Source of the DNA: a virus
Reading direction: 5' to 3' (one strand)
Virus record (IMG/VR): IMGVR_UViG_3300021962_000028
Span: 1 to 64,000 of that record
DNA length: 64,000 nt
The notes beneath the pieces are model-generated. The model worked only from the letters and a program-made list of their open reading frames with translations, made no database searches and was not told where the DNA came from. Made by a program: the position numbers and the translations under genes. Of the stretch, positions 6,752 to 51,539 are shown piece after piece. The first letter of the stretch is position 1, and the number at the start of each line of letters is the position of its first letter.

Positions 6752-9700
6752 TTAGATATTGTCAAATGACGCACCTGTTGGTGTAATCAAGAACTCAATA
6801 TCGATGAATTCTAACGCTTTAGTTGGTTTGATGTAAATTTTACCTACTAATTGGTTTTTATCTAAGTCTTCAGGAGATGAAGAAACTGTTACACGGAAAT
6901 CGTATAAACCTCTGTCTCTTCTGATAGCATCTAAGATAGGATTAACCGCGTCCAAGAAATCTTGTCTAACTTTCGCATCGTTTTGTTCAAACAGTAATCT
7001 AACCGCCACCGCTGAAATCAATTTACGTGCTTGTAATAACAATCTTCTTACGTTGATTCTATCAAGAGCCGACTCTCTAATTTGTAGAGTTTTGTTACCC
7101 CAAATTACAGTACCAACATCAGAGAAGGTTGCGATTGGGTTAAGTCTACCTACATATAAAGTATCTCTATCTTCTTGTGTTAATTTACGTCTCGCTTTAA
7201 TTGCGTTTACAAGACCTCTTGTGTAACCCGCAGATGCGAACCAAGGGAACGCGATGTTGTCGGTTAACGCTAAGTTTCTTGTTACTTCCGCAGTAGCTGG
7301 AATGTAAATTTGTGTATTGTTAACTGTATCACGAGTTAATACCCAAGGGTAGTAAGTTGCCGTGTAGTTAGAGTCAATACCTGTCTGTTCTAAGTTATCT
7401 ACCGCTTCTTGTGGATAAATCATATCTAAAGTATCGGTTGTAGAAGGTACAAACATATTAAAGTCAGGAGTAGTACAGATATATAATGAATCCGCTCTAT
7501 CGTACTCAATCATTTCAATCGCTTGTTCAACTAAGTTACTATTATTTACATAATCAATACCTGGTGTTACGAACACGTTAATGTTCACCGCCTCAGGGTT
7601 TGAGAATGTTTTTTGTCCTAATAGGTATGCGTAGTAGTCAGTATTCGCCCAATCTTGAGTATTATCCCCAACTGTTATACGTTTAAACATACCTGTACCA
7701 GTAGCATTTGGATATCTATCTGAATAACAAGCTCCCGCCAAATAACCTGAAGAACCTACTTGGAATCTATCTGAGTTTGTACGGTATTCTCTATAAATGT
7801 CCCATCCGTCGAAACCTCCGTGAACCATTAATGAGAATTTTCTTGCGTATAATCTGTAATAAGGGTTATTAGCGTTTGTTGGGTCATTTCTAAACTCAGC
7901 ATCACCAACCGCGAATGCCGTTCTACCTGAAGTAGCATATAAGTCAGCGATTTTAACAACAGTTGCTCCTGAGTCCATATGGAATCCTTTAGTTAAGTAA
8001 GACCAATCTTGTAATACAGGGTCACAAGTAGTACCTAAATTTTGTTTACCAACATATTGGAAAAAGTCTAAATCATAACCTGCTCCCGCCGCGGTAGATA
8101 AACCTAAGTAAGTTCTTCTTACATTGTCACCCGCACTAATCGCTGGATTATCTTGACCATTACTATATCCAAATGGAGGGTTGAAAATAACTTCTCCTGG
8201 GAAATCATACTTTGTTTTATAAACAGGGAATGGAGATTTTACCGATTCGTAGTTTCTAAAAGTATAACCTTCAAAACCACAAGGTAATGAATCTGTAGGT
8301 GCATCTTCATTAATTTCAACCATTACAAATTTAGAGTTCAATGCGTATTCCCCATCTGCCGTACCAATTTTTTTAGCTACGAAATTATTTAGATTAGGGT
8401 CCATAGAACAATTAGTGAATTTTTCTAACACAACAGGTGCATCATCAGTATCGTACCAATCACGGATAACAACATCAAATGTTTGATTTCCGAATGACAT
8501 ATTCATAATTGAAATTTTCAATTGGTCATTTGCCGAATTACCGTCAGCGATTGAGATAAATTTAAATAATCTGTAAACTTTAGTACCTCTTAATTCAGAC
8601 ACTAACCAAGGTGATTCAGGTGTTTGATATCTTTCACCGTAGTATCCAATACTTGAAGAGTTGTTACTTCTTGATTCTGGAGTTGAAATTAATTCCGCTC
8701 TAAGTCCTCTAATATATCCTTTTTTGAACGCCCAATTTAACATACTTGAGAATGTCTCCTCAACAAATAATGGGACCTCAGTTCTTGGTTTAGCAAAATT
8801 ACTTCCACCAAATACTTTTGGTAAGTAAGTTGCGTCTGACTCTTGTAATGAAGTTTTAAATACAAATGTTTTACCTTCATCATTTGTTACATTAATTGCA
8901 AATGGTGCAAATGGGTTTTTCTTAACCGCAGAATAACTACCTGTAAAGTCTAAGGTAACCGCACTTAACGCACTAACTTCATAAGTTGGTCCGTCATTAG
9001 TTGTATCATAGGTAGTTAAACCTCTTGACCTTAAAGTTGATACAATTAAATTATTGTAGTTACTGTAAGAAGTACCTGTATAGTAATAAATTTTACCGTG
9101 AAGAGTACCCGTAAAGCAATCAGGTTGTGTTGTAGTTGTTGTAGTTATAGGTGATGTCGTTGTAGTAGTTGCACAAGGATTCAAAGTTGTTGTTGTAGTT
9201 GTTACAGGAACCGTTGTTGTAGTTGTAGTAGTACCTGTTTTAGGTAACATAACCAACTCTGAAACTACAGTCCAAAATGACATACCTGAATAACTATCAC
9301 CACTGAAATTTTCAAATAATGAATAATACCAAGAATCGTTGTATGATGAAGAGAAGTCTGTGTTCGCCTCATTAACACTTGGTACATTTAATACGTTATT
9401 AGCGTCTGTAAATACAGGTGATAAAATATCGTAGTCGATATTATCAATACTACCCCAATAGTTAATTGATGTACCACTCAAACTTGGTTGAGCAAATATT
9501 GATAATAATTGTTGGTTAATGTCAGTTTTTAAAGTTGACACTCCACCGTTAAATTTAGTATATTGGTTATTAATAATGTTTTGAATTTCATCAGGGAAAT
9601 TAGTTACATATGTAATTGAACCATCTTGGTTACTACATCCTGTGAATTCAACATCAAAACTAAGTGATACACCTGTACAAGTAATGTCACAAGTATTATC

Positions 9701-10102
9701 ATTATAGTTAGGAATACTAGCACAAACCTCATCCATTTTAATCGTTGTAGGGTCTACGTTAGCAATTGTTTGAATTGACCAAGAAGGACCCGCATCGTAT
9801 CCTGACAAACCTAATACTCTTGTCATAAACATTTGATTAGATTGTTGTAGATATGATTTTGCTATATACGCCGATTCGTACTTAGGGATTTGCGTGTTTA
9901 TAAATTTTTCAGGGTTCGTTCCCCCGAAGTAAGTTTGGAACTCATCGTAATTACTAATGAAGATAGGTTCAAAAGCGGGACCTTTTAAAGCCTCACCTAC
10001 AACCCCTAATGTAGTAACACCAACACTTTGAGTAACAAAGCTTAAGTCTCTTTCTGATGTGTACACTCCTGGTGACACGAATACTTTACTGTTTGTTGCC
10101 AT
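6752..10102 (-). CDS. Tail sheath protein (T4 gp18-like) with a Thr-rich insertion
   Basis: FVSPGVYTSERDLS N-terminus; PWFASAGYTRG, WGNKTL, RINVRRLL, IKPTKALEFIDIEF. Confidence 0.95.
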   Translation of the reverse strand: MATNSKVFVSPGVYTSERDLSFVTQSVGVTTLGVVGEALKGPAFEPIFISNYDEFQTYFGGTNPEKFINTQIPKYESAYIAKSYLQQSNQMFMTRVLGLSGYDAGPSWSIQTIANVDPTTIKMDEVCASIPNYNDNTCDITCTGVSLSFDVEFTGCSNQDGSITYVTNFPDEIQNIINNQYTKFNGGVSTLKTDINQQLLSIFAQPSLSGTSINYWGSIDNIDYDILSPVFTDANNVLNVPSVNEANTDFSSSYNDSWYYSLFENFSGDSYSGMSFWTVVSELVMLPKTGTTTTTTTVPVTTTTTTLNPCATTTTTSPITTTTTTQPDCFTGTLHGKIYYYTGTSYSNYNNLIVSTLRSRGLTTYDTTNDGPTYEVSALSAVTLDFTGSYSAVKKNPFAPFAINVTNDEGKTFVFKTSLQESDATYLPKVFGGSNFAKPRTEVPLFVEETFSSMLNWAFKKGYIRGLRAELISTPESRSNNSSSIGYYGERYQTPESPWLVSELRGTKVYRLFKFISIADGNSANDQLKISIMNMSFGNQTFDVVIRDWYDTDDAPVVLEKFTNCSMDPNLNNFVAKKIGTADGEYALNSKFVMVEINEDAPTDSLPCGFEGYTFRNYESVKSPFPVYKTKYDFPGEVIFNPPFGYSNGQDNPAISAGDNVRRTYLGLSTAAGAGYDLDFFQYVGKQNLGTTCDPVLQDWSYLTKGFHMDSGATVVKIADLYATSGRTAFAVGDAEFRNDPTNANNPYYRLYARKFSLMVHGGFDGWDIYREYRTNSDRFQVGSSGYLAGACYSDRYPNATGTGMFKRITVGDNTQDWANTDYYAYLLGQKTFSNPEAVNINVFVTPGIDYVNNSNLVEQAIEMIEYDRADSLYICTTPDFNMFVPSTTDTLDMIYPQEAVDNLEQTGIDSNYTATYYPWVLTRDTVNNTQIYIPATAEVTRNLALTDNIAFPWFASAGYTRGLVNAIKARRKLTQEDRDTLYVGRLNPIATFSDVGTVIWGNKTLQIRESALDRINVRRLLLQARKLISAVAVRLLFEQNDAKVRQDFLDAVNPILDAIRRDRGLYDFRVTVSSSPEDLDKNQLVGKIYIKPTKALEFIDIEFLITPTGASFDNI

Positions 10103-11429: not shown

Positions 11430-11430
11430 A

Positions 11431-11979
11431 TTAGTATTTTAAAATTTCGTTAATAACGAATAATTTATTCTTTTGATTAATCATATCTACCTCTTTTGCT
11501 CGATATACAGGTTGTTCTGTTGATTTATAAACAAAACTATCGTATTTGTATGGGTTATATGTAACAACATTATCGTTTGATTCCTGAGGCATATTTTCAC
11601 AAGGGTATTTACAATAATCAACTAAGTCACCAATAACAAAGGCGTGTACATTCTTACTTTTTTCACTTCTAACTTTTTCTTTTCCACCCTTTCTAACTCT
11701 AAACTCAACATCACTTAATTTAACATAGTCCGCGTGAAGTATTACTTTAGATTTATATGTAACTGAAAAAGTGTGTTTATGTAAATTATAATAAACCATA
11801 ACTCGTTTACCTTTAAAATCTTCTTCAGAGTTATCGTGACCGCATTTATGACATACATATGGATTGTCACCGCCTTCTGTTGTATCCCAAGACCAACCAC
11901 AATCATCACATATGATTTTGTCATTAGTAATGGTTTCCATTATTAAATTTTTTTGTCTTTCACTAATTAATATTTTCAT
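11431..11979 (-). CDS. Hypothetical protein: ISE-Q leader, Zn ribbon and conserved phage domain
   Basis: MKILISERQKNLIME; CxxC..CxxC; VYYNLHKHTFSV..KNVHAFVIG..YNPYK. Confidence 0.75.
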   Translation of the reverse strand: MKILISERQKNLIMETITNDKIICDDCGWSWDTTEGGDNPYVCHKCGHDNSEEDFKGKRVMVYYNLHKHTFSVTYKSKVILHADYVKLSDVEFRVRKGGKEKVRSEKSKNVHAFVIGDLVDYCKYPCENMPQESNDNVVTYNPYKYDSFVYKSTEQPVYRAKEVDMINQKNKLFVINEILKY

Positions 11980-23098: not shown

Positions 23099-23099
23099 A

Positions 23100-34490: not shown

Positions 34491-34491
34491 T

Positions 34492-35064: not shown

Positions 35065-35112
35065 CTTTCTTTATTACCTTTTTTTTGTTATTCTTATGGA
35101 AAACATAATAGA

Positions 35113-36327: not shown

Positions 36328-36328
36328 T

Positions 36329-36781: not shown

Positions 36782-36784
36782 ACT

Positions 36785-37492: not shown

Positions 37493-37494
37493 AT

Positions 37495-38067: not shown

Positions 38068-38074
38068 AAAATAT

Positions 38075-38635: not shown

Positions 38636-38637
38636 AT

Positions 38638-39342
38638 ATGGTTACAGTACATTTGATTACATATAATGAAGAGCTAATGATTGAGTTTTTCGTTAAACAC
38701 TACCGTAAACTTTTTCCTAATTGTGTTATTAAGGTCTACGACAATTACTCAACTGATGAGACTGTAAAAATTGCAGAAAATTTAGGTTGTCAAATCAATT
38801 ACTACGATTCAAACAACAAATTATCCGACTCTAAATTCTTAGAAATTAAAAATAACTGTTGGAAAGATTCTGAAACTGATTGGGTTGTGGTTTGTGATTG
38901 TGATGAATTAATCTCAATAACTGAAGAAGAATTGATTAACGAATCAAATAATGGTGTTACGTTATTTAAATTCGACGGATACAATATGGTTAACACTGAA
39001 GGTCCACTTAATTTGCACGAATTAAGTTTTGGATTTAGAGACACGATTTACGATAAAACATTACTTTTCAATAAATCCAAAATTAACGATATTAATTATC
39101 AACCAGGATGTCACGTATGTGGTCCAAGTGGTGAGGTAAAATATAGTACCAATATTTACAAAATGTTACACTATAAATATTTGGGGGTTGAATACACCGT
39201 AAGTCGTTACAAAATGTTTGCGGATAGATTATCGGATGAAAATAAAAGAATGGGTTGGTCTTATCACTACGCCGAAAACGAAGCGAAACTTCGAAGATAC
39301 TATAGTGAAATGAACTCAAGAGGGTTAATAAAACTTATTTAA
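38638..39342 (+). CDS. GT2-like glycosyltransferase
   Basis: TYNEE..FFVKHY, VYDNYSTDET, WVVVCDCDE. Confidence 0.85.
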   Translation: MVTVHLITYNEELMIEFFVKHYRKLFPNCVIKVYDNYSTDETVKIAENLGCQINYYDSNNKLSDSKFLEIKNNCWKDSETDWVVVCDCDELISITEEELINESNNGVTLFKFDGYNMVNTEGPLNLHELSFGFRDTIYDKTLLFNKSKINDINYQPGCHVCGPSGEVKYSTNIYKMLHYKYLGVEYTVSRYKMFADRLSDENKRMGWSYHYAENEAKLRRYYSEMNSRGLIKLI

Positions 39343-39344
39343 TT

Positions 39345-40118
39345 ATGTATTGGTTTTCAGGAGTAAACAATCACGATAAAAACAAATATCAGAGTTACAT
39401 CAAAATGTATACTGTTGCGGTATTATCCGCAAAAAAAACTAACCCAAGTATTAAACCTTATTTAATACTTGATGGAGAGGTTGATGAATATTTGGAAAAT
39501 TTAGAAGATTTAGGGGTGACGATAGTGAACCATAAATCATTATTTTATGATTCTCTATTATCACATTACAAAACAAACACTACCGCATTTGGTGCATTCT
39601 TAAGAATTGACATACCAAAAATTTGTGAAAAATTAAACATAGAAGACGAATATATCTTATACACGGATAATGATGTTTTGTTTATGGATGATGTTTCAAA
39701 ATTAAACGAACTAACACCAAATTATTTTATGGCTTCGGGTGAATTTGATAAAAATTTTGTACCGTCATTAATTAATACGGGGGTAATGTGGATTAATTGG
39801 AAAAATATGAATGAAATTTATAACGAATTTGTTTTCTTCATTAAATTAAACTTAAGTAAATTTCAAACGTATGACCAAGACGCTATTAGAATGTTTTTTA
39901 AAGATAAGATTGAATCTTTAGATTTTAATTACAATTATAAACCATATTGGGGTTATAGTGATGAAGTTAAAATTTTACATTTTCACGGGCCTAAACCTAC
40001 GTTTACTGATAATGAATATAAGAACTTCCCTTACAAACAAATGGTTACACCATACTACCAAACAATGGTAGAAAAATTTAAAGAAATATATGATAACAGT
40101 AATTTATTCGACGCATAA
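39345..40118 (+). CDS. GT8-like glycosyltransferase
   Basis: FLRIDIP, LYTDNDVLF, NTGVM, DQD, ILHFHGPKP. Confidence 0.85.
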   Translation: MYWFSGVNNHDKNKYQSYIKMYTVAVLSAKKTNPSIKPYLILDGEVDEYLENLEDLGVTIVNHKSLFYDSLLSHYKTNTTAFGAFLRIDIPKICEKLNIEDEYILYTDNDVLFMDDVSKLNELTPNYFMASGEFDKNFVPSLINTGVMWINWKNMNEIYNEFVFFIKLNLSKFQTYDQDAIRMFFKDKIESLDFNYNYKPYWGYSDEVKILHFHGPKPTFTDNEYKNFPYKQMVTPYYQTMVEKFKEIYDNSNLFDA

Positions 40119-41607
40119 AGACCAAGAATTTAATAACAAATTTAAACAACATTTGTTACAAACTTCGGGTGTTAAAAATATTCAAATTATAGAATATATT
40201 AATAATAATGAGTTTAGTCTATCAAGTCTTTATAATAAAGGTATTCAGGAATCTGAATATAATATTGTAGTTTGTTGTCATAACGATATCAAATTAGAAA
40301 AAAATTGGGGTAAGAAATTATTACAAGACTTTGATAGTAATCCTGATTATGGAATTATTGGTAAAGCTGGTTCTTGTTACTTTCCTGAATCAGGAATTTA
40401 TTGGGAGAGAATGACTCAGACTATGGTTGGTCAAGTTTACCATCACCCTAAAGATAGTAAAAAATGGATTAATCGTTATTCACCTAAACTACCTTTCTTA
40501 ATTCCCGTGGTAACTATTGATGGTCTTTTTATCTCATTTGATAAGACTAAAATTAAACACGGGTTTGACGAGTCTATTGGTAAATTTCACTATTATGACC
40601 ACCCATTCTGTCTTGCAAATTATTTAGACGGAGTTAAGATTGGGGTTACATCTTCTTTTGAAATAACTCACGAATCGATAGGGAAACCAAACGAAGAATT
40701 CTTTACATCTAAAGATATCTTTTTAAAAAAATATGGTGATAAACTACCGTTAGATTTAAAACCTTCAACACCATTCTTTACTGAGATAAAAGAAAAACCA
40801 ATTAAGAATGTAGGTAAAGTTGCGGTAATAATTCCAACAAAAGGAAAAACTAATCTTTTATTACAATGTTTACAATCATTTATCGAATATTCCAACTCTC
40901 AATCTTATCGTATTTTCGTGGCAGACACTGGGTCAAACAACGAAGAAATTTTAGAAATTAAAAAGTTTATTGAAGATAATTCATCATTAATCAACATAAC
41001 ATTACTTCAATATGATTATTATAATTTTGCAAAAATTAATAATGACGTTGTTTTAAATCATATAACTGATGAATATGAATATCTTTTATTTTGTAATAAT
41101 GATATTAAAATATTGAATAATGTGATAAACGATATGTTAAGTGTGTTCAAACAAAATTCAAATGTAGGTACTGTAGGAGCTAGATTACATTACGAAGATG
41201 GTACAGTACAACACGACGGTATTTTAATGTATCTTAAACAAGATAAGTCTTTACACGTATCTCATTTAGGTCTTAGAAATTACTACAATTACACAACAAC
41301 AACTAAAGAGGTTATCGGTAATACTGGTGCGTTATTAATGATTAGAAAAAATGTCTTCATTAAAATGGGAATGTTTAATGAAAAATACACCGCTTGTTTT
41401 GAAGACGTTGAACTTAATCTAAAGTGTCTAGTATCTGGTTTAAAAAACTATTTTACGGGTAACTCGGTGGCTTATCATTATGAATCCCAAACTAGAAATG
41501 AAGACCCTAAGGATATGGAAAAATTAATAAACGATTATAAGGATAACTTATACCCATATATTGTTCAAAACTTTGACAAGATAAAAAGACTCGTGATGGT
41601 CTTATAA
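40090..41607 (+). CDS. Two-domain GT2-like glycosyltransferase
   Basis: Domain 1 YNKG..CCHNDI..IDGLF..FHYYD; domain 2 VIIPT..ADTGS..CNNDI..FEDVEL. Confidence 0.85.
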   Translation: MITVIYSTHKDQEFNNKFKQHLLQTSGVKNIQIIEYINNNEFSLSSLYNKGIQESEYNIVVCCHNDIKLEKNWGKKLLQDFDSNPDYGIIGKAGSCYFPESGIYWERMTQTMVGQVYHHPKDSKKWINRYSPKLPFLIPVVTIDGLFISFDKTKIKHGFDESIGKFHYYDHPFCLANYLDGVKIGVTSSFEITHESIGKPNEEFFTSKDIFLKKYGDKLPLDLKPSTPFFTEIKEKPIKNVGKVAVIIPTKGKTNLLLQCLQSFIEYSNSQSYRIFVADTGSNNEEILEIKKFIEDNSSLINITLLQYDYYNFAKINNDVVLNHITDEYEYLLFCNNDIKILNNVINDMLSVFKQNSNVGTVGARLHYEDGTVQHDGILMYLKQDKSLHVSHLGLRNYYNYTTTTKEVIGNTGALLMIRKNVFIKMGMFNEKYTACFEDVELNLKCLVSGLKNYFTGNSVAYHYESQTRNEDPKDMEKLINDYKDNLYPYIVQNFDKIKRLVMVL

Positions 41608-41668
41608 TAATTACTACACAAATAAAATAATTTGAATATCATTAGTGTATAAATATTAATAAATCAAT

Positions 41669-42412
41669 ATGACTGAAAGAAGAAAAAAAGGTACAACTCA
41701 AACCCCAAAAGAAAGTGAGTATAAACCAACAATGTCTAAAAAAGAACTAATATCACAAATTATTAAGAAAAAGACCAAAGAAAAATTCTTAACAACTAAT
41801 CAGAAAAAATATTACGATACGTTAACGTCAAGTGAAATCACAGTTTGTTCAGGACCCGCTGGAGTTGGTAAAAGTTATATTACGATGAAAGCCGCGATTG
41901 ATTTAATTGCGGACCCTACAACCCCTTACGAAAAAATTATTATTGTTAGACCCGCGGTTGAGGCGGAGGAGAAATTAGGGTCGTTACCAGGGAATGTTGA
42001 AGAGAAACTAGACCCATATATTTTTCCATCTTATTATTTGTTAAATAAAATTATCGGTAAAGAAGCAAGAGAAAAACTTAAAGAGATTGAAGTTATCGAA
42101 GTTTTTGCTTTGGCGTATATGAGAGGTATGAACATCGACAACTCTATATTAATATTTGAAGAAGGACAAAACGCGTCACCAAGTCAAATGAAACTTCTTT
42201 TAACAAGAATTGGATTTAATAGTAAATTTTTTATATCAGGGGATGTTGAACAATCTGACAAATACCGAAATAAAACCCAAAGTGGATTATGGGACGCAAT
42301 TGAGAAATTTAGAGACTCAGGAGGAATTTCAATATTTGAATTTAAAGATAAGAATGATATAGTAAGAAACCCTTTAATTACTAAAATTTTAGAAAAATAC
42401 GAAGAACAATGA
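41669..42412 (+). CDS. phoH: PhoH-family ATPase
   Basis: GPAGVGKS, RPAVEA.EKLGSLPG, AYMRG, LLTRIG, SGDVEQSD, DIVRNPL. Confidence 0.93.
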   Translation: MTERRKKGTTQTPKESEYKPTMSKKELISQIIKKKTKEKFLTTNQKKYYDTLTSSEITVCSGPAGVGKSYITMKAAIDLIADPTTPYEKIIIVRPAVEAEEKLGSLPGNVEEKLDPYIFPSYYLLNKIIGKEAREKLKEIEVIEVFALAYMRGMNIDNSILIFEEGQNASPSQMKLLLTRIGFNSKFFISGDVEQSDKYRNKTQSGLWDAIEKFRDSGGISIFEFKDKNDIVRNPLITKILEKYEEQ

Positions 42413-43020
42413 GAATAGGTATCGAGATTAATGGTGTTTTAAGAGATACGATTGGTAAACTAGAAATGGTTTATAAAAAATATTTAATGGATAAAACTGA
42501 TGGGATGGAAGAAGATGAAAACCCATTTGAGTATGGTATGAATCTTCCTGTTACAAGTTTAAACTTAAGAGACCATTTTACGTTTAGAGATGATGAAGAA
42601 TTCTTCTCATTTCTTTACGATGAATTTCCTATGGAAATCTTTGGTCACGCAGGTTCTACCGAAACAATGACATTCAATGACTTTAACGAATTTTATGTTG
42701 AGTTTAGGAGTAATCACGATATTGTAGTGGTTTCTGATGAAATTGGTAAATCAAAACCTGCATCATTATTTTTTCTATCTAAATTTGGTTGTTTAACTGA
42801 AAAAGTAAAATTTTATAGTAATACCACAATAAATTCAATGTGGGATGAAATAGACCTTTTACTTACATCAAATCCTGACTTATTATTAGACTATCCAAAA
42901 AATAAAATTATTGTTAAATTTAACACAGACTACAATAAAGATATTAAAATGGAACACGAAATATCGTCAATAAAAGAACTAAAAGAAAAAATAAATCAAA
43001 TATATGGGACCAATGCTTAA
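42409..43020 (+). CDS. 5'(3')-nucleotidase-like HAD-fold protein with a degenerate catalytic motif
   Basis: RIGIEINGVLRD corresponds to canonical xGxDxDGVLxD. Confidence 0.6.
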   Translation: MRIGIEINGVLRDTIGKLEMVYKKYLMDKTDGMEEDENPFEYGMNLPVTSLNLRDHFTFRDDEEFFSFLYDEFPMEIFGHAGSTETMTFNDFNEFYVEFRSNHDIVVVSDEIGKSKPASLFFLSKFGCLTEKVKFYSNTTINSMWDEIDLLLTSNPDLLLDYPKNKIIVKFNTDYNKDIKMEHEISSIKELKEKINQIYGTNA

Positions 43021-43288
43021 GATAATGAACGAACACTATTTCTTAGATATCGACGAAATAGACAAATATATTCAAATTGAACCTAAAGAACCATTATCAG
43101 GTTATACAGGTGAAAATCACATTAGTATCGTAAAATACGAAACAGTTAAATTAATGTTAGAGATATTGATGGATGAGCAGGAGGAAATTGATGAAACTTT
43201 AGGTCACAAAGCTTCTTCCAATTTATCAATACCGTTTAAACTCGCGTTTAACACATTAATCAGTAAAAAAATCTTAAAATCATTTTAA
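43004..43288 (+). CDS. Hypothetical protein
   Basis: 94 aa; KYE..K..; FKLAFNTL; overlaps neighbours in the operon. Confidence 0.7.
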   Translation: MGPMLKIMNEHYFLDIDEIDKYIQIEPKEPLSGYTGENHISIVKYETVKLMLEILMDEQEEIDETLGHKASSNLSIPFKLAFNTLISKKILKSF

Positions 43289-43291
43289 ATT

Positions 43292-44350
43292 ATGGAACAA
43301 AATAGAATATTAAAACTACAAAAATCAATCGAGAATTTACAAAGTAAATCATCGAGAATTTACCTATTTGTACAGGATACTAAAGGTAATCCTAGAGCTT
43401 CGGTAAGATACATATATCAAATGGGTATGGCGTTAAAAAATAACGGGTTTAACCCAATCATTTTACACGAAAAGCCTGAATATGTCGGAGTTGCTGAGTG
43501 GTTAGGACCTGAATATATGGAACTACCTCATAAACCAATTGAAGGTCAGAATTTAGAGATTTCTCCTGAAGATTTTTTAATTATTCCTGAAATCTTTGGA
43601 TTTATTATGGAACAAGTTAAAGATTTACCTTGTGCTAAAATCGTACTTTGTCAAGCGTATGACCATATGATGGAAACCCTCCAACCTGGATTTGGGTGGA
43701 CAAACTACGGGTTCTACAAATGTATTACAACATCTGAATTCCAAAAAGATTATATCTCTTCAATTATGAGAGGTGTTAGTACTGACGTTCTTCCATTATA
43801 TATTGATGAGAAGTTTAAACCTACAAGCACCACTCAAAAACCAATCGTTGCGGTACATTCAAGAGACCAAAGAAAAACATTAAACTTTATTAAATCATTC
43901 TATTTAAAATTCCCTCAATATAGATGGATTACATTTAGAGATATGAGAGGATTAACTGAGGATGAATTCGCGAATAGTCTACAAGAGTGTTTTTTGAGTG
44001 TTTGGATTGACGAAACTAGCGGATTCGGGACGTTCCCAATGGAATCTATGAAATGTGGTGTACCAGTAATTGGTAAAATACCAAGTTTATTCCCTCATTG
44101 GATTAACGAAGATAACGGTTTGTGGTTATCGGAAGAAACTAAATTAACCGACTTTACCGCTGACTTTATTCAAAATTGGTTAGAGGATAATATCAAACCT
44201 GAACTATATACTGAAATGGAGAAAACTGTTTCATCTCTATCAAGTAAGGAGACTTTCGAAACTAGTGTTACTAAATTTTTCACAGATTATTTAGAGACAA
44301 GATACGAATCATTTAACGAACAATTAACAAAATTAAAAACTGAAGAATAA
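43292..44350 (+). CDS. GT-B (GT4-like) glycosyltransferase
   Basis: DFLIIPE, SGFGTFPMESMKCGVPVIG. Confidence 0.75.
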   Translation: MEQNRILKLQKSIENLQSKSSRIYLFVQDTKGNPRASVRYIYQMGMALKNNGFNPIILHEKPEYVGVAEWLGPEYMELPHKPIEGQNLEISPEDFLIIPEIFGFIMEQVKDLPCAKIVLCQAYDHMMETLQPGFGWTNYGFYKCITTSEFQKDYISSIMRGVSTDVLPLYIDEKFKPTSTTQKPIVAVHSRDQRKTLNFIKSFYLKFPQYRWITFRDMRGLTEDEFANSLQECFLSVWIDETSGFGTFPMESMKCGVPVIGKIPSLFPHWINEDNGLWLSEETKLTDFTADFIQNWLEDNIKPELYTEMEKTVSSLSSKETFETSVTKFFTDYLETRYESFNEQLTKLKTEE

Positions 44351-44351
44351 T

Positions 44352-45155
44352 ATGGAAAATACTTTTAACTTATCTGTAATACTACCAATCAAAACGGCAA
44401 CTGCAAAAGATTTTGACGAGTTTTTTGAAAAAGCAATCAAATCTGTATCAGAACAACAAACAAGTGTAAATGAGTTAGTTATTGTTCATACTGATGAAGA
44501 ACTATTAACCAAAAAAATAACTGAATATGATTTTGGAAACTTAAACGTAAAAAAATTAGTTTGGTCTGACGAAGCTAATTTTGCAAACCAAGTTAATTTT
44601 GGTATTTCACAATCAGAATCTGAATGGGTTTCAATTTTAGAATTTGACGATGAATACTCAAGCATTTGGTTTAAAAATGTGAAAAAATATTCTGAAATTT
44701 ATAAAGACGTTTCAGCATTTTTACCCATCGTTATTGATGTAGACGAAAAAGGAACATTCGCTGGTTTCACTAATGAAGCAACTTTCGCTCAAAACTTTTC
44801 ACAAGAGATTGGATTTTTGACTAACGAAACACTACAAGAATATCAAAACTTCCAAACTTCAGGAATGGCGTTTAAGAAAAGTTTAGTTAATGATTTTGGT
44901 GGTATTAAATCTAATTTTAAATTAACCTTTGTTTACGAATTTTTATTAAGACTGACATTTAATTCTGTACGAGTAATGACTATCCCGAAAATCGGGTATA
45001 AACACATTAACCTTAGAGAAGGGTCAATCTTTTGGAATCATAAATATGGTGCTGATAAATTATCCGAAAATGAGGTTAAGTTTTGGATAGACTCGGCTAA
45101 AAAAGAATACTTTTTCGCTGATGAAAGGCCATTAAATTATGAACCACAAGTTTAA
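44352..45155 (+). CDS. GT2-like glycosyltransferase
   Basis: LSVILPI, NFGI..SEWVSILEFDDEY. Confidence 0.75.
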   Translation: MENTFNLSVILPIKTATAKDFDEFFEKAIKSVSEQQTSVNELVIVHTDEELLTKKITEYDFGNLNVKKLVWSDEANFANQVNFGISQSESEWVSILEFDDEYSSIWFKNVKKYSEIYKDVSAFLPIVIDVDEKGTFAGFTNEATFAQNFSQEIGFLTNETLQEYQNFQTSGMAFKKSLVNDFGGIKSNFKLTFVYEFLLRLTFNSVRVMTIPKIGYKHINLREGSIFWNHKYGADKLSENEVKFWIDSAKKEYFFADERPLNYEPQV

Positions 45156-45910
45156 TGCAACTCACAACAAATGAATTAAGTGGGAACACAGAAAGTATTG
45201 AATCTAAAAAACGAGGAAGGAAGACAACACAAACGAACTATTTTGACGTACGAGAAGAAAATGCGGTTAGATTGTTTTTGGTTGAGCCTTCTTGGGAAGT
45301 AAGAAATAAGATTTATAATGAATACTTAAGAGACCCTTTAGACAAAATGATATCGTCGATTATTAGACGGTATAAACTCTATCGAAAAGATATGGACTTC
45401 ACAGAAATCCATACAGATACACATTCTTTTTTGATGACTAAAATTGAGAAATTTAAACCGTCAAAAGAAAAGAAAGCGTATTCCTATTTCGGTACTATCT
45501 GTAAAAACTATTTAATGGGTCAAATCATAAAAGACCAAAAAGAATTAAATAGAAAGATTTCATATGAGGACATTTCTTCGTCGTTAGAAGAAAATGTAAA
45601 ATTTTCATACTCTATAGATAATGAAGATGTTGACGCTACAATGGTAATTGAGAAGTTTAAACAGGAATTAAAAACATTTATAGATACCGAAAGTTTAAAT
45701 GATAACGAAACAAAATTAGGATATGCGTTAATTGATTTGTTCGACAACTATGAAGAGATTTTTATGGGGGCCGATAACAATAAGTTCAATAAAAACGTAA
45801 TCCTACTTTCATTACGAGAGATGACTAATTTATCAACGAAAGAAATTAGGAACTCGATGAAAAAATATAAGAAATTATACGGTAGTATTATAGGTATCAT
45901 TCTAAAATAA
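45155..45910 (+). CDS. Putative phage RNA polymerase sigma factor (gp55-like)
   Basis: NYF..EE.AV, KFKPSKEKKAYSYFGTICKNYL (region-2-like); C-terminal HTH-like segment. Confidence 0.65.
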   Translation: MQLTTNELSGNTESIESKKRGRKTTQTNYFDVREENAVRLFLVEPSWEVRNKIYNEYLRDPLDKMISSIIRRYKLYRKDMDFTEIHTDTHSFLMTKIEKFKPSKEKKAYSYFGTICKNYLMGQIIKDQKELNRKISYEDISSSLEENVKFSYSIDNEDVDATMVIEKFKQELKTFIDTESLNDNETKLGYALIDLFDNYEEIFMGADNNKFNKNVILLSLREMTNLSTKEIRNSMKKYKKLYGSIIGIILK

Positions 45911-45932
45911 ACGTTATAAGGTATTTATAGAT

Positions 45933-46304
45933 ATGAGTAGACCTAAGAAAAAAGAAATAAAATTTACAAAAGACTCTGTTCTAACAATTTTACAAGAAGT
46001 GTATAATGAAATTGTGGAACAGAGAAATACTGCATTAAGAATTCAAAATAAAATGTTGGCATTAATGAAAGATGCTGAGGATATGCAGACAATTGGACCA
46101 ATCATTAAAGAACAACAAAAAATTATTAATGACTGCGTTGAGAAAAAATTATCATTATCTAAATTACAATCTTCAATTTGGGAAAAATCATCAAAAGAGA
46201 CAAGTGATTTCACTATCGATGATTTGGATGATGATTTAATGGAATCTCTAATTAGTAGAGATGTTGAAAAAGTAGACGACTCTTATAAATTAAATAAAAA
46301 ATAA
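45933..46304 (+). CDS. Hypothetical coiled-coil protein
   Basis: 123 aa; TATTTAT just upstream. Confidence 0.75.
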   Translation: MSRPKKKEIKFTKDSVLTILQEVYNEIVEQRNTALRIQNKMLALMKDAEDMQTIGPIIKEQQKIINDCVEKKLSLSKLQSSIWEKSSKETSDFTIDDLDDDLMESLISRDVEKVDDSYKLNKK

Positions 46305-46309
46305 TAGTT

Positions 46310-48205
46310 ATGGGATTTGATTTAGAAAGTGGTTACGCCAGTATTGAAAATAAAATGAAGGCATCGAGAACTTATCTTGATACTAAAATGGCGTCTATTG
46401 ATTTAGAAAAAAACTCTGGTGATAATTTAGAACAGGCAAAACAAAAAGTACTTTCAAGTATTGATAAAGTCAAAGACCAAAAGAAGAGATTTCAAAGACA
46501 GATGAAAACTCAAATGGACCAAATGTTAAGTATGGTTCAATTTAATGGAGGGTCTGGTTCATCAACAATGAATTATATTAAAACTAAGTTTATTCAAGCC
46601 GCTTTAAGAGTAGAACCTAAAATATTTGACATACTTAATAAAGAGACTATAAATGCTTTAGGGTGTTCCCAACAACAGGCATATTCCGCACAAACAATTT
46701 ATATCAAAGTTAAAAGTGTTGATTTACAAAGATTATTAACTCGTGACCCTGATGAAGAAGTTGCGGCAGTTGCTTATGAGAAAGTAGCCCCAACACCCAA
46801 TCAAATTCCATATTCAATGAACAGACAAATGTGGGAAAGGTTACAAGATTTAAATGTACCTCAACCATTTTATGGGCGTTCAGGACAGAAACTATTTGAT
46901 ATTAGTTATGTTCAACAAGATGGTAATGGTATTAGTGGTGATTTCTACAAAATAGATTTAGTTAATAAAACTGTGGGAATGAATAAAGTAGCCAATTTTA
47001 TTGTCGATTATTATCGAGCAGTAAAAATAATTGATACGGGTAATTTATTTCAACAACTGATGGACCAAATCTCAGGGGCGGTTTCTTTTGACGCTAAAGT
47101 AGGTTTTGGTCAGTTAGAGGAAGAAAATAAATTTATGTTAATTCTACAAAGAATCTTAGGTTTATGTTTTGACAGTGCTAGAGAGATTGATATTAGTGGT
47201 AATTCTAAAGTTGCCGAGTTAGATGGTATTGATGAATCTTTCTTTGAATTTACTGATATGGATTTGAGGTACATTAACGACACAATTTCTAATATACAAA
47301 ATGGGGTTGTTGAGTTTGAGGATTGTGAGAATGTAAAACTACCTGTAGACAGTCAGTCAATAATGAATTCGTTATTAAAGTTTAATAAATTAACCAAAAT
47401 TGAAGACGAACAAACTTTGGCAGAACAATTAACAGAAACTTTGACAGGTAATGAAAAATGGAAATTTTTAGTCCCTAATTCTGTAGACATTAATTTAAGT
47501 GTTGATTTAAGTTTCTTAACTAATTTACCTAAGGCTATTATGATGGCATTATTATCTCCTAAGGTATTATTACCATTATACATAATGGCAAAAGCTATTG
47601 GTCAGTTAAGTGGATATGCTATCGAAAGTCTAATGGACTTTATGAAGGCATTTAAAAAATATTGTATAAATATTATGTCTAAAATAGGTTCTTTATTTGT
47701 TCAAGAACTTTTTGAAATCATTAAAAAAGATATTATGAATCTTATTTCCCAAATTATTAAAGATTTGGCAAAAGAAAAGGTTCTTAAAAAATACGTTATG
47801 ATTTTAAAACTAATACAACTCATAATGATTATTGCGAAATTTGTCGACGACTGGAGAAAATGTAAGAGTGTTGTCGACGAAATACTTGCGTTACTTACAT
47901 TAGTCACACCTGATTTTGGTGGAGGTATTCCAGCCCCTTTATTAGCCGCCGCTCAATTGTTACAAGGGTCATCACCAACAAGAGCATTTATTAACGGTGT
48001 ATCCGAATGGCAAAAAGTAGGTTTACCTACGGGAGCAATGCCTGACGGAAGTCCTAATTTGGCGTTACAGGCGATGATGGGACAAATTAAAGGTCAAGCT
48101 CAAGAACAAGATGAGAACGGTAAAGTACAAATCTTTATGAAACCATTAACAGTTACTCCAGCTGGTACATTACCATCTGCAGATATATACGGAAAAGCAT
48201 TCTAA
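46310..48205 (+). CDS. Hypothetical protein, likely virion/baseplate associated
   Basis: 631 aa with hydrophobic helices; upstream of the spike gene. Confidence 0.7.
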   Translation: MGFDLESGYASIENKMKASRTYLDTKMASIDLEKNSGDNLEQAKQKVLSSIDKVKDQKKRFQRQMKTQMDQMLSMVQFNGGSGSSTMNYIKTKFIQAALRVEPKIFDILNKETINALGCSQQQAYSAQTIYIKVKSVDLQRLLTRDPDEEVAAVAYEKVAPTPNQIPYSMNRQMWERLQDLNVPQPFYGRSGQKLFDISYVQQDGNGISGDFYKIDLVNKTVGMNKVANFIVDYYRAVKIIDTGNLFQQLMDQISGAVSFDAKVGFGQLEEENKFMLILQRILGLCFDSAREIDISGNSKVAELDGIDESFFEFTDMDLRYINDTISNIQNGVVEFEDCENVKLPVDSQSIMNSLLKFNKLTKIEDEQTLAEQLTETLTGNEKWKFLVPNSVDINLSVDLSFLTNLPKAIMMALLSPKVLLPLYIMAKAIGQLSGYAIESLMDFMKAFKKYCINIMSKIGSLFVQELFEIIKKDIMNLISQIIKDLAKEKVLKKYVMILKLIQLIMIIAKFVDDWRKCKSVVDEILALLTLVTPDFGGGIPAPLLAAAQLLQGSSPTRAFINGVSEWQKVGLPTGAMPDGSPNLALQAMMGQIKGQAQEQDENGKVQIFMKPLTVTPAGTLPSADIYGKAF

Positions 48206-48206
48206 T

Positions 48207-48416
48207 ATGGACGGTAGAGATAGAGTTAACAATATTGTTAAAGAGATTAAGGATAGTACAAATAATGAATTGTTATTTGCATTAAATTTCCTTAACGAAG
48301 ATTACGAAAAAACAAAAGAAATGATTATAAACTTAACCAAACATTTAGATAGTATTGAAATTGTTTATAATAAAGTATTAAAAGAACACGAAAAGAGACA
48401 CAATGGATTTAAATAA
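48207..48416 (+). CDS. Hypothetical coiled-coil protein
   Basis: 69 aa filling the gap between flanking genes. Confidence 0.65.
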   Translation: MDGRDRVNNIVKEIKDSTNNELLFALNFLNEDYEKTKEMIINLTKHLDSIEIVYNKVLKEHEKRHNGFK

Positions 48417-49950
48417 AAATAGAATTTTATGGTTTGCGAAAGTTAAAGACGTAAATGACCCGTTAATGCTTAATAGAGTTAGGGTTGATTTTGGTACTAA
48501 AAATAACGAATCAATTTTAAATGCAATACCAAATACTAAAAATGGTAAAGAGACTAAAGAAGGTGGTGATTTAAAACCTGAATTCAAATGGACTGAGATT
48601 GATTCATTCTGTTGTCTACCATTATTACCGTTATATCTAAACGTAACCCCTAAAAAAAATGAATCGGTTAACGTTATCTTCCCTGATAATGAATACCAAT
48701 ATGATGAACAATATTATATTCAAGGGTCTGTTACATCACCATTAACAGTTTATAACGAAAATTTCAACGCTCAAAGAATGTTCGCATCTAAGAACAGACT
48801 TGAGTCTCCAAAATTATTAAAAAATCCATTAAATAACGAATATTATATTACAAAAACTAAGGGTGTATTCATCGAACCTGAAGATATTGGTTTAATGGGT
48901 AGAGGAACTACAGATATTGTAATTAAAGACCGACACGTATTACTTAGAGCGGGTAAAAGTACAACAATGCCCGATAACCCAAATAAAGAAATTAACGCAA
49001 AGACAACTAGAAGTTTTATACAATTATCAGATTTTAATCAAAGAGAAGTTGCGTTACCTAATTCAGAATCAACTAGATTCCAAGAAAGTGTTTCATTTAC
49101 TAAGACACTTATTGAATGGAATGTTACAAACCCTGAAAATGCCGAGAATAAATTTAATTATATTGTTAGTCTTTATCGACTACCTGAAAAAGGTAAGAAA
49201 GAATATAATACTCAAAATATGACAATAGACACTGATGTGTTGAATGATGATAAATCTTTAATTTTTAGAATGCAGTTTTCCGCCGAAGGAGTTTTTGATT
49301 TAACTCAAAAAATTATTAAGTTTATTGGACAATGTAATGACGGTGAAATTAATATAACTCCTTATCCAATAACTAAATTGGAAAATCAATTTCCATTATT
49401 TGTAAGACCTTCTCCTGAAACTTTAAAATATATGGAATCCCCGTCATCAGGTGTTGAATTCTCAAATGTAACTGCAATTGCGTTAGCCATTGACTATAAG
49501 GCGTTAAAAAACGGTACTGGTCTTATCTATTCTAAAGATAAAATAGGACAACAATTTGAACTCGTAAAAGATGTTCAAAAACAAAAAGAGATTAAGAATG
49601 ACGCACCTATCACTTATAATATTACGGGAGCGGATAAATTATTATTTCTATCTCACGAAAGTAGGATTACAGGTAAAGAACAAATTGTTTTAGATGAAAC
49701 AACTATATACGGTATTGAACAAAATTATCTTATCTCTAACGTACTACCAAATACAGATGCTATGGTTAGGGGGGACGAATTAATGAAGTTTATGAACTTA
49801 GTAGTTAGGTTTTTATCCTCTCACGTACACGCATTTCACGGTATGCCACCAGTACCTGTTTCACAGGATGGTACTAACATTTCTGATATCTTTCAAAAAT
49901 TGGCAACCGCCCCTGAGATAATTCTTAATCAAAATATCAGAATTAATTAA
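48403..49950 (+). CDS. Baseplate hub / central spike protein (gp5/gpV-like)
   Basis: N-terminal OB-fold pattern VKDVNDPLMLNRVRV..W..PKKNESV.V; C-terminal VRGDEL..HVH. Confidence 0.65.
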   Translation: MDLNKNRILWFAKVKDVNDPLMLNRVRVDFGTKNNESILNAIPNTKNGKETKEGGDLKPEFKWTEIDSFCCLPLLPLYLNVTPKKNESVNVIFPDNEYQYDEQYYIQGSVTSPLTVYNENFNAQRMFASKNRLESPKLLKNPLNNEYYITKTKGVFIEPEDIGLMGRGTTDIVIKDRHVLLRAGKSTTMPDNPNKEINAKTTRSFIQLSDFNQREVALPNSESTRFQESVSFTKTLIEWNVTNPENAENKFNYIVSLYRLPEKGKKEYNTQNMTIDTDVLNDDKSLIFRMQFSAEGVFDLTQKIIKFIGQCNDGEINITPYPITKLENQFPLFVRPSPETLKYMESPSSGVEFSNVTAIALAIDYKALKNGTGLIYSKDKIGQQFELVKDVQKQKEIKNDAPITYNITGADKLLFLSHESRITGKEQIVLDETTIYGIEQNYLISNVLPNTDAMVRGDELMKFMNLVVRFLSSHVHAFHGMPPVPVSQDGTNISDIFQKLATAPEIILNQNIRIN

Positions 49951-49979
49951 TTCTTTGATATTTATAGGTAAAAGAATTA

Positions 49980-51539
49980 ATGTCAACACATAGGTCATAT
50001 TTTAATAAAAACAATACTATCATTAGTGATTCGTACGCTAATACAGGTAGAAACCCCGTAACTGATTTATATTTTGGGTCTGCTAAGGATACATCCGCGC
50101 CTTTTGGGTATACACGATTTATCTTTAACTTAAATTTAGAACCACTTTTAAATAAAATCTTAGATGGGACAATAACGTTGGATTGTGTGGATAATATGTC
50201 ACATAATTTAACTATGACAAATACGATAAGGTTTGATGAGGATTTATTAAACACTTATAACTCTGATGAAAGAAGACGAGCAAGTTCGTTTGATTTAATT
50301 TTATTTAGAATTCCTCAAACTTGTTATAATCACACCCCTACAGGGAATAGTACGTCAACAACTACAACAACTACCACACAACAATGTACACCATATCCCC
50401 AATATTGGGATGAGGGGGTTGGGTATGACTTCAACAATTCAAAATCACCTATTAATACACCAACTGGTGTTGCAATCTATAGTCAACCATTAATCGATAA
50501 CGCCTTTTCAAAAAGACCTTCAAATTGGTTTGAAACAAGTAATTTAGATTATTGGTCAGAACCTGGTATGTATTCCAATACTAATACTTCAACGTATGTT
50601 AATTATAATGATTTAGTAATTGTAGACATACAACATTTTGAAAAAGGTAATGAAGACATTAATTTTGATATGACTAACGAGATTAACGGTATTATTAATG
50701 GTACCATTACTAACGTCACGGGATGGGGAATTGCCTACAGACCTGAATTTGAATTAATCACGGGTTTAACTTCGAATTATTCGGTGTCTTTTTTCACAAG
50801 ACATACTCAAACTTTTTATGAACCATACTTATTAACAACATATAATGATTTAATTCAGGACGATAGAAATTTGTTTGTAGAAAAAATTACAAATAAACTT
50901 TATATGTTCGCTTATGTTGATGGTGACTTAGTAACATTAGATTCAAATCCTACCGTAACAATTTTAGACCCTAATGGGGATGTAATACCTTCATTAATTA
51001 ACTTACCAACTTGTTCAAGAACTAAAGGGGTATATGAAGTAACAATACCACCAATCAGTGGTTATCCAACACCTTGTCAATTTAGTGACGTATGGGGGAA
51101 TATTATATATAATGGTGATTCATTACCTGATATTGAAAATGATTTTGTTTTACAACCTTATAAAAATAGAGTATCAATCGGTGTTCAATCTAAAGAACCT
51201 GATTTATATGGGTTTGATTTTTATGGTATAAAACAGGATGAAAAAATATTGAATACCGATATTAGAAAAGTTGGTGTTGTAATTAAAAAGGCCTACACAA
51301 CCAAACAATTATTACAAAATGTAGACGCAAGTTATCGAGTTTACGTAAGAGAAGGTATGACTGAAGTCCAAGTACAAGATTGGACAAAAATAAATAGAAC
51401 CTCAAATGAATATTATTTCATTTTTGATACAAGAGACAAAATACCTAATGAGTATTATATCGACATTAAAGTTAAAAGTAGTGGAGAGGTAGATACTTAT
51501 AAAAGAACAATAAAATTTTTAATAGTTAATAAAAAATAA
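49980..51539 (+). CDS. Hypothetical virion protein with a Thr tract
   Basis: KNNTI..NTGRNP, WDEGVGYDF, FFTRHTQTFYEPYL; STSTTTTTTT insertion. Confidence 0.75.
   Translation: MSTHRSYFNKNNTIISDSYANTGRNPVTDLYFGSAKDTSAPFGYTRFIFNLNLEPLLNKILDGTITLDCVDNMSHNLTMTNTIRFDEDLLNTYNSDERRRASSFDLILFRIPQTCYNHTPTGNSTSTTTTTTTQQCTPYPQYWDEGVGYDFNNSKSPINTPTGVAIYSQPLIDNAFSKRPSNWFETSNLDYWSEPGMYSNTNTSTYVNYNDLVIVDIQHFEKGNEDINFDMTNEINGIINGTITNVTGWGIAYRPEFELITGLTSNYSVSFFTRHTQTFYEPYLLTTYNDLIQDDRNLFVEKITNKLYMFAYVDGDLVTLDSNPTVTILDPNGDVIPSLINLPTCSRTKGVYEVTIPPISGYPTPCQFSDVWGNIIYNGDSLPDIENDFVLQPYKNRVSIGVQSKEPDLYGFDFYGIKQDEKILNTDIRKVGVVIKKAYTTKQLLQNVDASYRVYVREGMTEVQVQDWTKINRTSNEYYFIFDTRDKIPNEYYIDIKVKSSGEVDTYKRTIKFLIVNKK

Follow-up and report, generated by a model that had tools for sequence, protein, structure and literature searches.

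Cysteine-framed threonine-rich tracts in virion proteins of an uncultured, probably jumbo phage and their possible link to a PF11397/GT60-type glycosyltransferase gene

The DNA analyzed here (the window) was the first 64 kb of one viral record (IMG/VR IMGVR_UViG_3300021962_000028), which was 158,622 bp in size with a G+C content of 32.5%. This record was only 53% complete (CheckV), and the phage is therefore probably a jumbo phage. It is uncultured and known from metagenomes only. A megablast search with 25 kb of the window as the query gave zero matches among cultured phages, and the best named matches of its tail sheath, in Microcystis phage Mel-JY01 and the Flavobacterium "immuto" phages, shared ~30% identity. 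The window contained T4-type structural and replication genes, namely those for the tail tube, baseplate hub, sheath, helicase, DNA polymerase, prohead protease, major head protein, and portal. Threonine-rich tracts framed by cysteines were found in three proteins: the tail sheath of 1116 amino acids (aa; 6752–10102, minus strand), a modular protein of 1188 aa (28901–32467, minus strand), and a protein of 519 aa (49980–51539, plus strand). A gene for a 416-aa PF11397 "GlcNAc" glycosyltransferase, of the GT60-type polypeptide N-acetylglucosamine (GlcNAc)-transferase family, was located at 23669–24919 on the minus strand. The tracts, their cysteines, and their possible link to this gene are described below.

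An earlier note on this DNA had placed tracts at 9116–9235, 30300–30605, 50320–50390, and about 55550, and all four were recovered when the coordinates were re-read. They consisted of poly-Thr with Cys in the sheath, a tract between CPNC and a Cys ~100 residues on in the 1188-aa protein, seven Thr between Cys115 and Cys136 in the 519-aa protein, and an unbracketed five-Thr run with no Cys nearby. The claim that several unrelated structural proteins were involved also held, since the bracketed tracts belonged to the tail sheath, to a modular protein with a lectin-like domain, and to a protein with carbohydrate-binding module (CBM)-like and immunoglobulin (Ig)-like domains. The proteome of the record comprised ~48,790 aa, with 6.4% Thr and 1.0% Cys. 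Thr runs of at least six residues occurred eight times in the 158-kb record, compared with ~0.003 expected by composition; the 1188-aa protein contained four of them, the sheath three, and the 519-aa protein one, and no other protein had any. A scan of every open reading frame (ORF) in the record for Thr/Pro-rich tracts found none beyond these three proteins, and neither the major head protein (57041–58852) nor the tube protein (5247–5735) had one. The probability of a Cys within six residues on both sides of a tract was ~0.003 from composition. The Thr codons of the runs were ACA (54%), ACT (37%), ACG (8%), and ACC (1.5%), near genome usage. The codons were thus mixed, as the earlier note had reported, and no triplet slippage was indicated; however, the 1188-aa tract was a DNA tandem repeat according to Tandem Repeats Finder (TRF), which detected no repeat scoring >40 in the sheath and 519-aa tracts. 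The long Thr/Pro-dominated stretches, predicted to be disordered and tandemly repeated in the 1188-aa protein, had the make-up of mucin-like domains.

The 1116-aa protein is a true contractile sheath of the T4 gp18 type, with ~650 extra residues. It matched phrog_23 (E 3.4e-52 over residues 5–1114), and among the Pfam profiles for the C-terminal and subtilisin-like sheath domains Phage_sheath_1C (PF17482, E 3.5e-8) was above the cut-off and PF04984 (E 4.7e-4) was below it. Its AlphaFold2 model had a predicted local distance difference test score (pLDDT) of 87.9 and a predicted template modelling score (pTM) of 0.80. Solved sheaths aligned with this model at VIA Z scores of 33–36, including those of Klebsiella phage KP1 [Z 35.8, root mean square deviation (rmsd) 3.5, 454 residues aligned] and the Streptomyces contractile injection system (Z 36.2, rmsd 1.8, 322 residues aligned). 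The top Foldseek match was chain 9mkb_dS of the T4 portal-neck-tail complex (647 residues, E 1.4e-23), which we take to be the T4 sheath chain. The gene adjoined those of the tail tube (phrog_4542, 5247–5735) and the baseplate, including the hub (phrog_150, 4409–5164). The minimal or solved sheath core aligned with the two ends of the protein only, so the tract (aa 290–325) lies within the extra ~650 residues of the mid-part. As a general rule, sheaths such as T4 gp18 and those of pyocins turn their conserved core toward the tube and their extra domains outward, and the insert would by analogy point outward.

The sheath insert (aa 290–329; 9116–9235, minus strand) was composed of two Thr-rich half-loops with NPC (Cys310) between them, and Cys329 opened the next strand. 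Runs of 7, 6, 5, and 6 Thr occurred at aa 291–325, with Cys310 between the second and third runs and Cys329 just past the last. In the AlphaFold2 model, the tract (aa 290–325) had a pLDDT <50 and was flanked by the long, well-predicted strands 270–285 and 329–345. Homologs of the sheath numbered thousands in IMG/VR and the protein collection, and >4,900 in public data. Among 190 distinct close homologs (60–98% identity), 180 contained the insert and 170 kept both Cys, within the motifs N/D/S-P-C and C-[YF]-x-G; six had neither the tract nor either Cys. The stretch between the two Cys was 16–20 residues long (18 in 97 cases and 19 in 64), and its content drifted at this held length between Thr and Pro-Thr runs, with a Gly run or a GNTGS-type stretch in some homologs. 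Sheath relatives of ≤50% identity mostly had a short turn joining the same two strands, and homology to the query resumed at the second Cys. On a tree built after removal of the insert columns, absence of the insert required two changes, since it was ancestral in one case and due to a single nested loss in the other; in this loss, the tract and the first Cys were gone together. Judged from these homologs, the insert was added to a loop long ago and has been maintained since, with a Cys-to-Cys ring of constrained length, and it is not a domain linker.

Two further features of the sheath homologs were observed. In some of them (P0029–P0036; L048, L056, and L060), an Ig-like domain of 75–100 aa with its own two Cys replaced the first Thr half-loop, and these sheaths kept the NPC...C ring, filled by a GNTGS-type stretch. 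The Pro share of the sheath tract rose weakly with the G+C content of the locus among loci L001–L080 (Spearman 0.28, p 0.018, a statistic that ignores kinship). Likewise, the high-G+C carriers (the XacN1 group, see below) had Pro-Thr tracts and the low-G+C carriers pure Thr. Poly-Thr may be an A+T-rich spelling of the Pro-Thr tract.

The 519-aa protein comprised an N-terminal CBM-like beta-sandwich, which carried the Thr-containing loop, and two C-terminal Ig-like domains (AlphaFold2 model, pLDDT 76.5). Residues 1–289 resembled the chondroitin-sulfate-binding CBM 8wab_B (Z 12.7, rmsd 3.3, 169 aligned), and the N-terminal domain also resembled the alginate-binding CBM 7vbo_A (Z 10.8). Its CBM-like identity came from the wide structural search only; Pfam and PHROGs gave zero matches, and the Foldseek matches were limited to Ig-like folds and uncharacterized proteins of viruses. 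The loop extended from Cys115 to Cys136 around a seven-Thr run (50322–50387, plus strand), and residues 120–133 had a pLDDT <50. DSSP assigned strand or bridge to residues 114–116 and 137–139 of the model, adjoining both Cys, which is weak evidence and compatible with a clamp.

The 519-aa protein had >3,000 homologs in public data, and in 118 of them the loop could be delimited by two family-wide conserved motifs. The loop was short (3–10 residues) in 83 of the 118, none of which had a Cys in it. It was long (15–286 residues) in the other 35, all with at least two basal Cys located 2–4 residues inside each end. The long loops varied widely in content, with a single Thr run in some, 22–128 residues of Pro-Thr in others, or Thr runs around a small Cys-containing domain, and a 15-residue version had both Cys and no Thr run. 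In one homolog (P0386), a folded domain of 286 aa (precomputed Pfam PF18599) was located at the Cys-framed loop, with no Thr tract. On the tree built without the loop columns, the loop changed state eight times, and at least five of these changes were forced by well-supported branches. This indicated that the Cys pair and the insert were gained or lost together several times. Because the loop accepts inserts of 15–286 residues at one site, it is a natural display scaffold.

The 1188-aa protein consisted of a conserved N-terminal part of 625 aa, a Thr/Pro-Thr linker, repeats, a second Pro-Thr linker, and a legume-lectin-like C-terminal domain, the last with weak Pfam lectin matches at residues 1011–1079 that were below the cut-off. 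The first linker (30302–30604, minus strand) began with CPNC, followed by four 10-residue units each ending in six Thr, ~50 aa of Pro-Thr, and a Cys. TRF detected a 30-bp unit repeated 4 times with 89% matches at 30468–30587 and a 66-bp unit repeated 2.1 times with 94% matches at 30321–30457, so expansion at the level of whole units, and no triplet slippage, has been at work in this gene. The second linker (aa 963–987; 29507–29581, minus strand) was located before the lectin-like domain and had no Cys bracket. Relatives shared only residues 1–625, ending in a conserved D-C-P-x-C motif that was kept regardless of what came after it, and their linkers varied greatly in length and composition, exceeding 150 aa in some. 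The downstream Cys of the tract opened a small module with its own second Cys. The earlier note had read a possibly disulfide-pinned loop here, and this did not hold: the flanking Cys belong to neighbouring domains, and the stop of homology at ~625 together with the differing payloads makes this tract an interdomain linker ~100 residues long. Among the three proteins, only this one had the layout of the interdomain Pro-Thr linkers of carbohydrate-active enzymes. The family (loci L161–L191) was arranged as anchor, linker, and payload, with the lectin-like domain here and other C-terminal payloads in relatives; several of these payloads had a papain-like active-site motif, judged by eye.

The tracts of the sheath and the 519-aa protein are clade-specific insertions left disordered by AlphaFold2. 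Relatives had a turn of 3–10 residues joining the same strands, and therefore these two tracts are insertions within a domain rather than interdomain linkers. In the alignment with homologs lacking the tracts, which the earlier note had proposed as a check, the flanking Cys tracked the insert in both families. The portability of the element suggested in that note also fits the data, because some inserts of the 519-aa family shared the layout of the sheath insert, i.e., a Thr or Pro-Thr run, NPC, a run of about 16, and Cys. The two Cys were conserved or lost together mostly, not strictly (in the sheath 170 had both, six neither, and 14 one). In other protein families on related contigs, a Cys within six aa framed both ends of 35% of 37 distinct Thr/Pro tracts and one or both ends of 78%, compared with 1.6 and 19%, respectively, for random placement in the same tract-bearing proteins. 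Framing of Thr/Pro tracts by Cys is thus a general habit of this phage group. Since the Cys pair and the insert co-varied, the pairs probably form a disulfide.

The gene at 23669–24919 matched PF11397 with an E-value of 7.8e-69 (233 bits vs. a cut-off of 21) over profile positions 95–349 of 352, the N-terminal part matching as a second stretch, and matched phrog_24687 with an E-value of 4e-165. An IDSH motif, a candidate for the metal-binding DxH/DxD motif of the GT27/GT60 lineage, was read from its own sequence. The Atlas neighbours of the protein were all PF11397 members and mostly viral, and a sequence search against solved structures found no relative. PF11397 presumably corresponds to CAZy family GT60. 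In Trypanosoma cruzi and Dictyostelium, GT60 polypeptide alpha-GlcNAc-transferases start mucin-type O-glycans on Thr (PMC8724618, PMC9472816). By family membership, the gene encodes a PF11397/GT60-type polypeptide GlcNAc-transferase, predicted to use UDP-GlcNAc as the donor and Thr (or hydroxyproline) as the acceptor. The protein started directly at the GT-A core, with no N-terminal hydrophobic or signal-like segment by eye, so the enzyme would act in the bacterial cytoplasm.

PF11397 was detected in all five large relatives, with one copy in each, and all five had several Thr-run-coding stretches. Among 50,697 cultured phage records, only four contained homologs (44–47% identity), the jumbo phages XacN1, Xoo-sp13, CM1, and RAS14. 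The number of Pro-Thr-coding stretches was 31 in XacN1, 23 in Xoo-sp13, and 11 in RAS14, and two relatives had 6 and 35. Ten large myophages without PF11397 (Mel-JY01, immuto, S-PM2, MX01, S-RIM50, Atu_ph07, SCTP-2, RaK2, phiKZ, and LR756508) had 0–1 such stretch each, and one in total in ~3 Mb. Multiple Pro-Thr stretches (6–35) thus occurred in 5/5 carriers of PF11397 vs. 0/10 genomes without it (Fisher p = 3.3e-4). ORF334 of XacN1 shared 47% identity with the enzyme of the window over 99% of its length, and several Pro-Thr tracts of XacN1 were Cys-flanked. The virions of XacN1 contained at least two Schiff-stained glycoproteins, and the two glycosyltransferases of this phage, one of which was ORF334, were proposed as the cause (PMC5852040, supplementary figure S4). 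Two other features of the XacN1 genome were recorded. ORF325 (3313 aa), behind the baseplate wedge genes, had two Cys-flanked Pro-Thr tracts. Six consecutive genes, ORF232–237 (AP018399.1, 124048–133104; L200), encoded proteins of 401–746 aa with a Pro-Thr-rich stretch at ~215–290, which looks like a paralog array of linker-bearing proteins.

A mechanism is proposed from these observations. A disordered Thr or Pro-Thr segment would have been inserted at a tight inter-strand turn of the sheath and of the CBM-like domain of the 519-aa protein, and the Cys would have arrived with it, one at each end or, in the sheath insert, one in the middle and one at the end. In the 1188-aa protein, the tract is an extensible linker that connects the conserved anchor domain to exchangeable heads of the lectin or peptidase type. 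In the host cytoplasm, the soluble PF11397/GT60-type transferase probably adds the first sugar to Thr (alpha-GlcNAc by family analogy), and other phage glycosyltransferases may extend it. After lysis, in oxidising water, the Cys pair would most likely become a disulfide and hold the loop closed at its base, and with such a clamp a long floppy insert would leave the host domain unloosened. The tail would then bear a dense glycan brush; a sheath consists of well over 100 subunits (138 in T4), and each would offer ~24 run Thr. Such a brush might shield virions against proteases, prevent their adhesion to particles, or help them escape recognition.

The phage thus probably sugar-coats its own particle. 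The earlier suggestion that the tracts display glycans gained support from the PF11397 gene, the co-occurrence of this gene with the tracts, and the staining of XacN1; the glycosylation itself we infer from the enzyme family, from that co-occurrence, and from the staining of a single, distant carrier. Exposure of the tracts on the particle is likewise suggested by homology. In our judgement, the scales are evenly poised on whether the Thr-rich tracts are cysteine-clamped mucin-like glycan-display loops, together with linkers, on exposed parts of the virion. More tentatively, we speculated that they belong to a cytoplasmic, phage-encoded mucin-type O-glycosylation, in which a GT60-type enzyme would decorate Cys-clamped loops inserted repeatedly into virion surface proteins, the sheath included, and which abundant freshwater jumbo phages would have in common with Xanthomonas and Stenotrophomonas jumbo phages.

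Several findings weigh against this interpretation. The phage is known here from sequence alone. Pure Thr runs were nearly missing from XacN1 (0), Xoo-sp13 (0), and RAS14 (1), and therefore the link is with Pro-Thr/Thr tracts generally and not with poly-Thr. The PF11397 carriers represented only two or three lineages, so the co-occurrence does not amount to many independent events. The study of XacN1 neither named the stained proteins nor tied them to tracts (PMC5852040). As for the cysteines, ~5% of the close sheath homologs (10/190) had only the first Cys, with Ser replacing the second, so a disulfide is not obligatory; another 4/190, which were tract-less, kept only the second Cys. Folding occurs in a reducing cytoplasm, and hence a disulfide would be no help to first folding. 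In both the window and XacN1, the PF11397 gene was located within a few kb of the DNA polymerase gene, and a role in DNA modification is possible. Finally, the glycosyltransferase clusters of jumbo phages have been assigned to host surface polysaccharide, as modifiers of capsule or lipopolysaccharide (PMC7824862).

The last two points lead to the strongest of the alternative explanations, namely that the tracts are plain, unglycosylated linkers or "entropic bristles" and that the glycosyltransferases serve host surface polysaccharide (as a block to superinfection) or phage DNA. Thr and Pro-Thr stretches would then be stiff, hydrophilic, protease-resistant spacers, and the Cys would still clamp loop bases or cap domain ends. 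The huge variation in tract length while the host protein is kept (22–128 aa of Pro-Thr in the 519-aa family and >150 aa in the 1188-aa family) is in line with this, as are the sheath homologs in which the stretch between the Cys is Gly-rich or of GNTGS type rather than Thr-rich. The GT2, GT8, HtrL-like, and cytidylyltransferase genes of the window would also suit polysaccharide work. However, bare linkers leave it unexplained why the tract-rich phages are those with PF11397, and they do not account for the glycoproteins in XacN1 virions (PMC5852040). Moreover, all characterized PF11397 members modify polypeptides (PMC8724618, PMC9472816). With regard to the DNA route, no gene of the thymidylate-synthase-like or TET/JBP families was found in the 53%-complete record, and the TET search matched no control genome either. 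We consider this explanation somewhat unlikely, and the glycan-display reading is preferred.

A second alternative is a near-neutral, low-complexity expansion of repeat-prone ACW/CCN-ACN DNA at tolerant loops and joints, with the Cys being features of the surrounding disulfide-rich domains. Consistent with this idea, the 1188-aa gene contains tandem DNA repeats, its family keeps the upstream DCPxC whatever comes after it, and many tract-bearing proteins of relatives are Cys-rich throughout; the weak rise of the sheath Pro share with G+C is as mutational bias predicts. However, the sheath insert and its fixed inter-Cys length have been kept across a radiation down to ~60% identity, its tract contains no TRF repeat, and the Cys of the 519-aa family come and go only with the insert, inside one otherwise conserved domain. 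Such an origin is thus improbable. Thioether chemistry, in which dehydrated Thr is joined to Cys in a lanthionine-like manner or the Cys is glycosylated, is suggested only by the juxtaposition of Cys and Thr runs and by known peptide chemistry, and is very hard to credit, since none of the annotated window ORFs was recognized as a dehydratase, cyclase, or radical S-adenosylmethionine maturase and the inter-Cys stretch is nearly Thr-free in the Gly-rich and GNTGS variants.

On the minus strand, an HtrL/YibB-like gene (20747–21550) and a DUF3431 gene (23100–23672), with two unknown ORFs between them (within 20747–23672), adjoined the PF11397 gene and might serve the same pathway. A glycosyltransferase-rich block was located at 35113–45155 on the plus strand and contained genes for a glycosyltransferase (35113–36327), a cytidylyltransferase (36329–36781), a methyltransferase (38024–38635), GT2 (38638–39342), GT8 (39345–40118), a double GT2 (40090–41607), a weak GT1-like match below the Pfam cut-off (43292–44350), and another GT2 (44352–45155). 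Four of the glycosyltransferases were searched against solved structures, and nothing was found except a weak match (E 1.6e-4) of GT8 with 5GVV, its sole solved relative, which is GlyE of Streptococcus pneumoniae (PMC7826918). The larger plus-strand block of 34083–48205 mixed the sugar genes with those for an exonuclease, a dUTPase, and PhoH. GT2 also co-occurred with the tracts in all five relatives, which was uninformative because GT2 is found everywhere.

Directly downstream of the PF11397 gene, a minus-strand gene (25020–26534) encoded a collagen-like tail fibre protein with many PHROG tail-fibre matches, and tandem DNA repeats of 36, 27, and 18 bp were found in it at 25579–25727 and 26260–26336. 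The unbracketed five-Thr run (~55554–55568, minus strand; aa 464–468) belonged to a 534-aa protein (55353–56957) encoded beside the major head protein gene, and may be an ordinary linker. This protein had Gly/Ser-rich and Thr-rich joints and several Cys, and no family was matched. One relative (G001, the record of L089) contained three Thr-run-coding stretches at 183103–183599 with a spacing of exactly 240 bp, a pattern suggestive of a repeated 80-residue domain whose copies are joined by Thr runs. The ORF at 11431–11979 has a possible zinc ribbon, behind which it matched (E 2e-31) the Pfam family that includes mycobacteriophage L5 gp82, and the ORFs at 46310–48205, 48403–49950, and 26811–28859 matched no family.

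The only clear demonstrations of glycosylated phage particles come from a few mycobacteriophages, and XacN1 provides a hint. A search of a literature library returned no paper on poly-Thr in phage structural proteins, nor on PF11397/GT60 in phages. On our best reading, what is new here is the link between a PF11397/GT60-type gene and virion tracts, and the addition of Cys-clamped mucin-like loops to phage virion glycosylation. If the tracts are glycan acceptors, sugar-coated tails would be regular in a very large group of environmental phages and in cultured jumbo phages of plant-associated bacteria. The tails would carry thousands of O-glycans, and a cysteine-framed, Thr-rich "mucin grammar" with its enzyme family, known from protists, would also exist in bacterial viruses. 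A Thr/Pro-Thr tract together with a PF11397 gene would then be a simple signature of such phages, and such a coat would be relevant to the stability of the particles, to their adsorption, and to their recognition by the immune system.

The firm precedent for self-glycosylation is that of mycobacteriophages Che8, Corndog, and Myrna, whose virions are glycosylated as summarized in PMC12363180 (citing Freeman et al., 2023). In both cases, phage-encoded glycosyltransferases act, or are proposed here to act, on high-copy structural proteins of the same phage while these are still in the cytoplasm and unassembled. According to the same summary, however, the carriers in mycobacteriophages are the capsid and tail tube proteins and the enzymes are of other families, whereas in the present phage, known from its genes alone, the head and tube proteins have no Thr/Pro tract and the candidate carriers are the sheath and two glycan-binding proteins, with an internal Cys-clamped loop as the acceptor and a PF11397/GT60-type enzyme. 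XacN1 is similar in its PF11397 homolog (ORF334), its 31 Pro-Thr-coding stretches, several of them Cys-flanked, and its stained virion glycoproteins. It differs in its host phylum, its higher G+C content, and its Pro-Thr in place of pure Thr runs.

The enzymes of T. cruzi and Dictyostelium belong to the same family by Pfam, and their acceptors, like those proposed here, are Thr arrays beside Pro; the mucin repeats of T. cruzi contain runs of about eight Thr. The mucin-making GT60 enzymes of eukaryotes work in the Golgi on secreted proteins, whereas the phage enzyme would work in the bacterial cytoplasm. The Skp1-modifying PF11397 member acts in the eukaryotic cytoplasm (Pfam family description). 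In hydrolases of the Cex/CenA type from Cellulomonas fimi, an extended Pro-Thr box that separates folded modules, and is O-glycosylated in the native host, is located beside a binding module with disulfide-tied ends. This layout matches that of the 1188-aa protein, although those hydrolases are secreted enzymes, and it differs from the sheath and 519-aa tracts, which are loops inside a domain. The outer domains of T4 gp18-type sheaths and T4 Hoc provide a further parallel, with variable extra modules outside a conserved lattice and Ig-like or sugar-binding decoration. However, the additions in gp18 and Hoc are folded domains, whereas the loop added here is disordered and of low complexity, with a Cys pair that is conserved.

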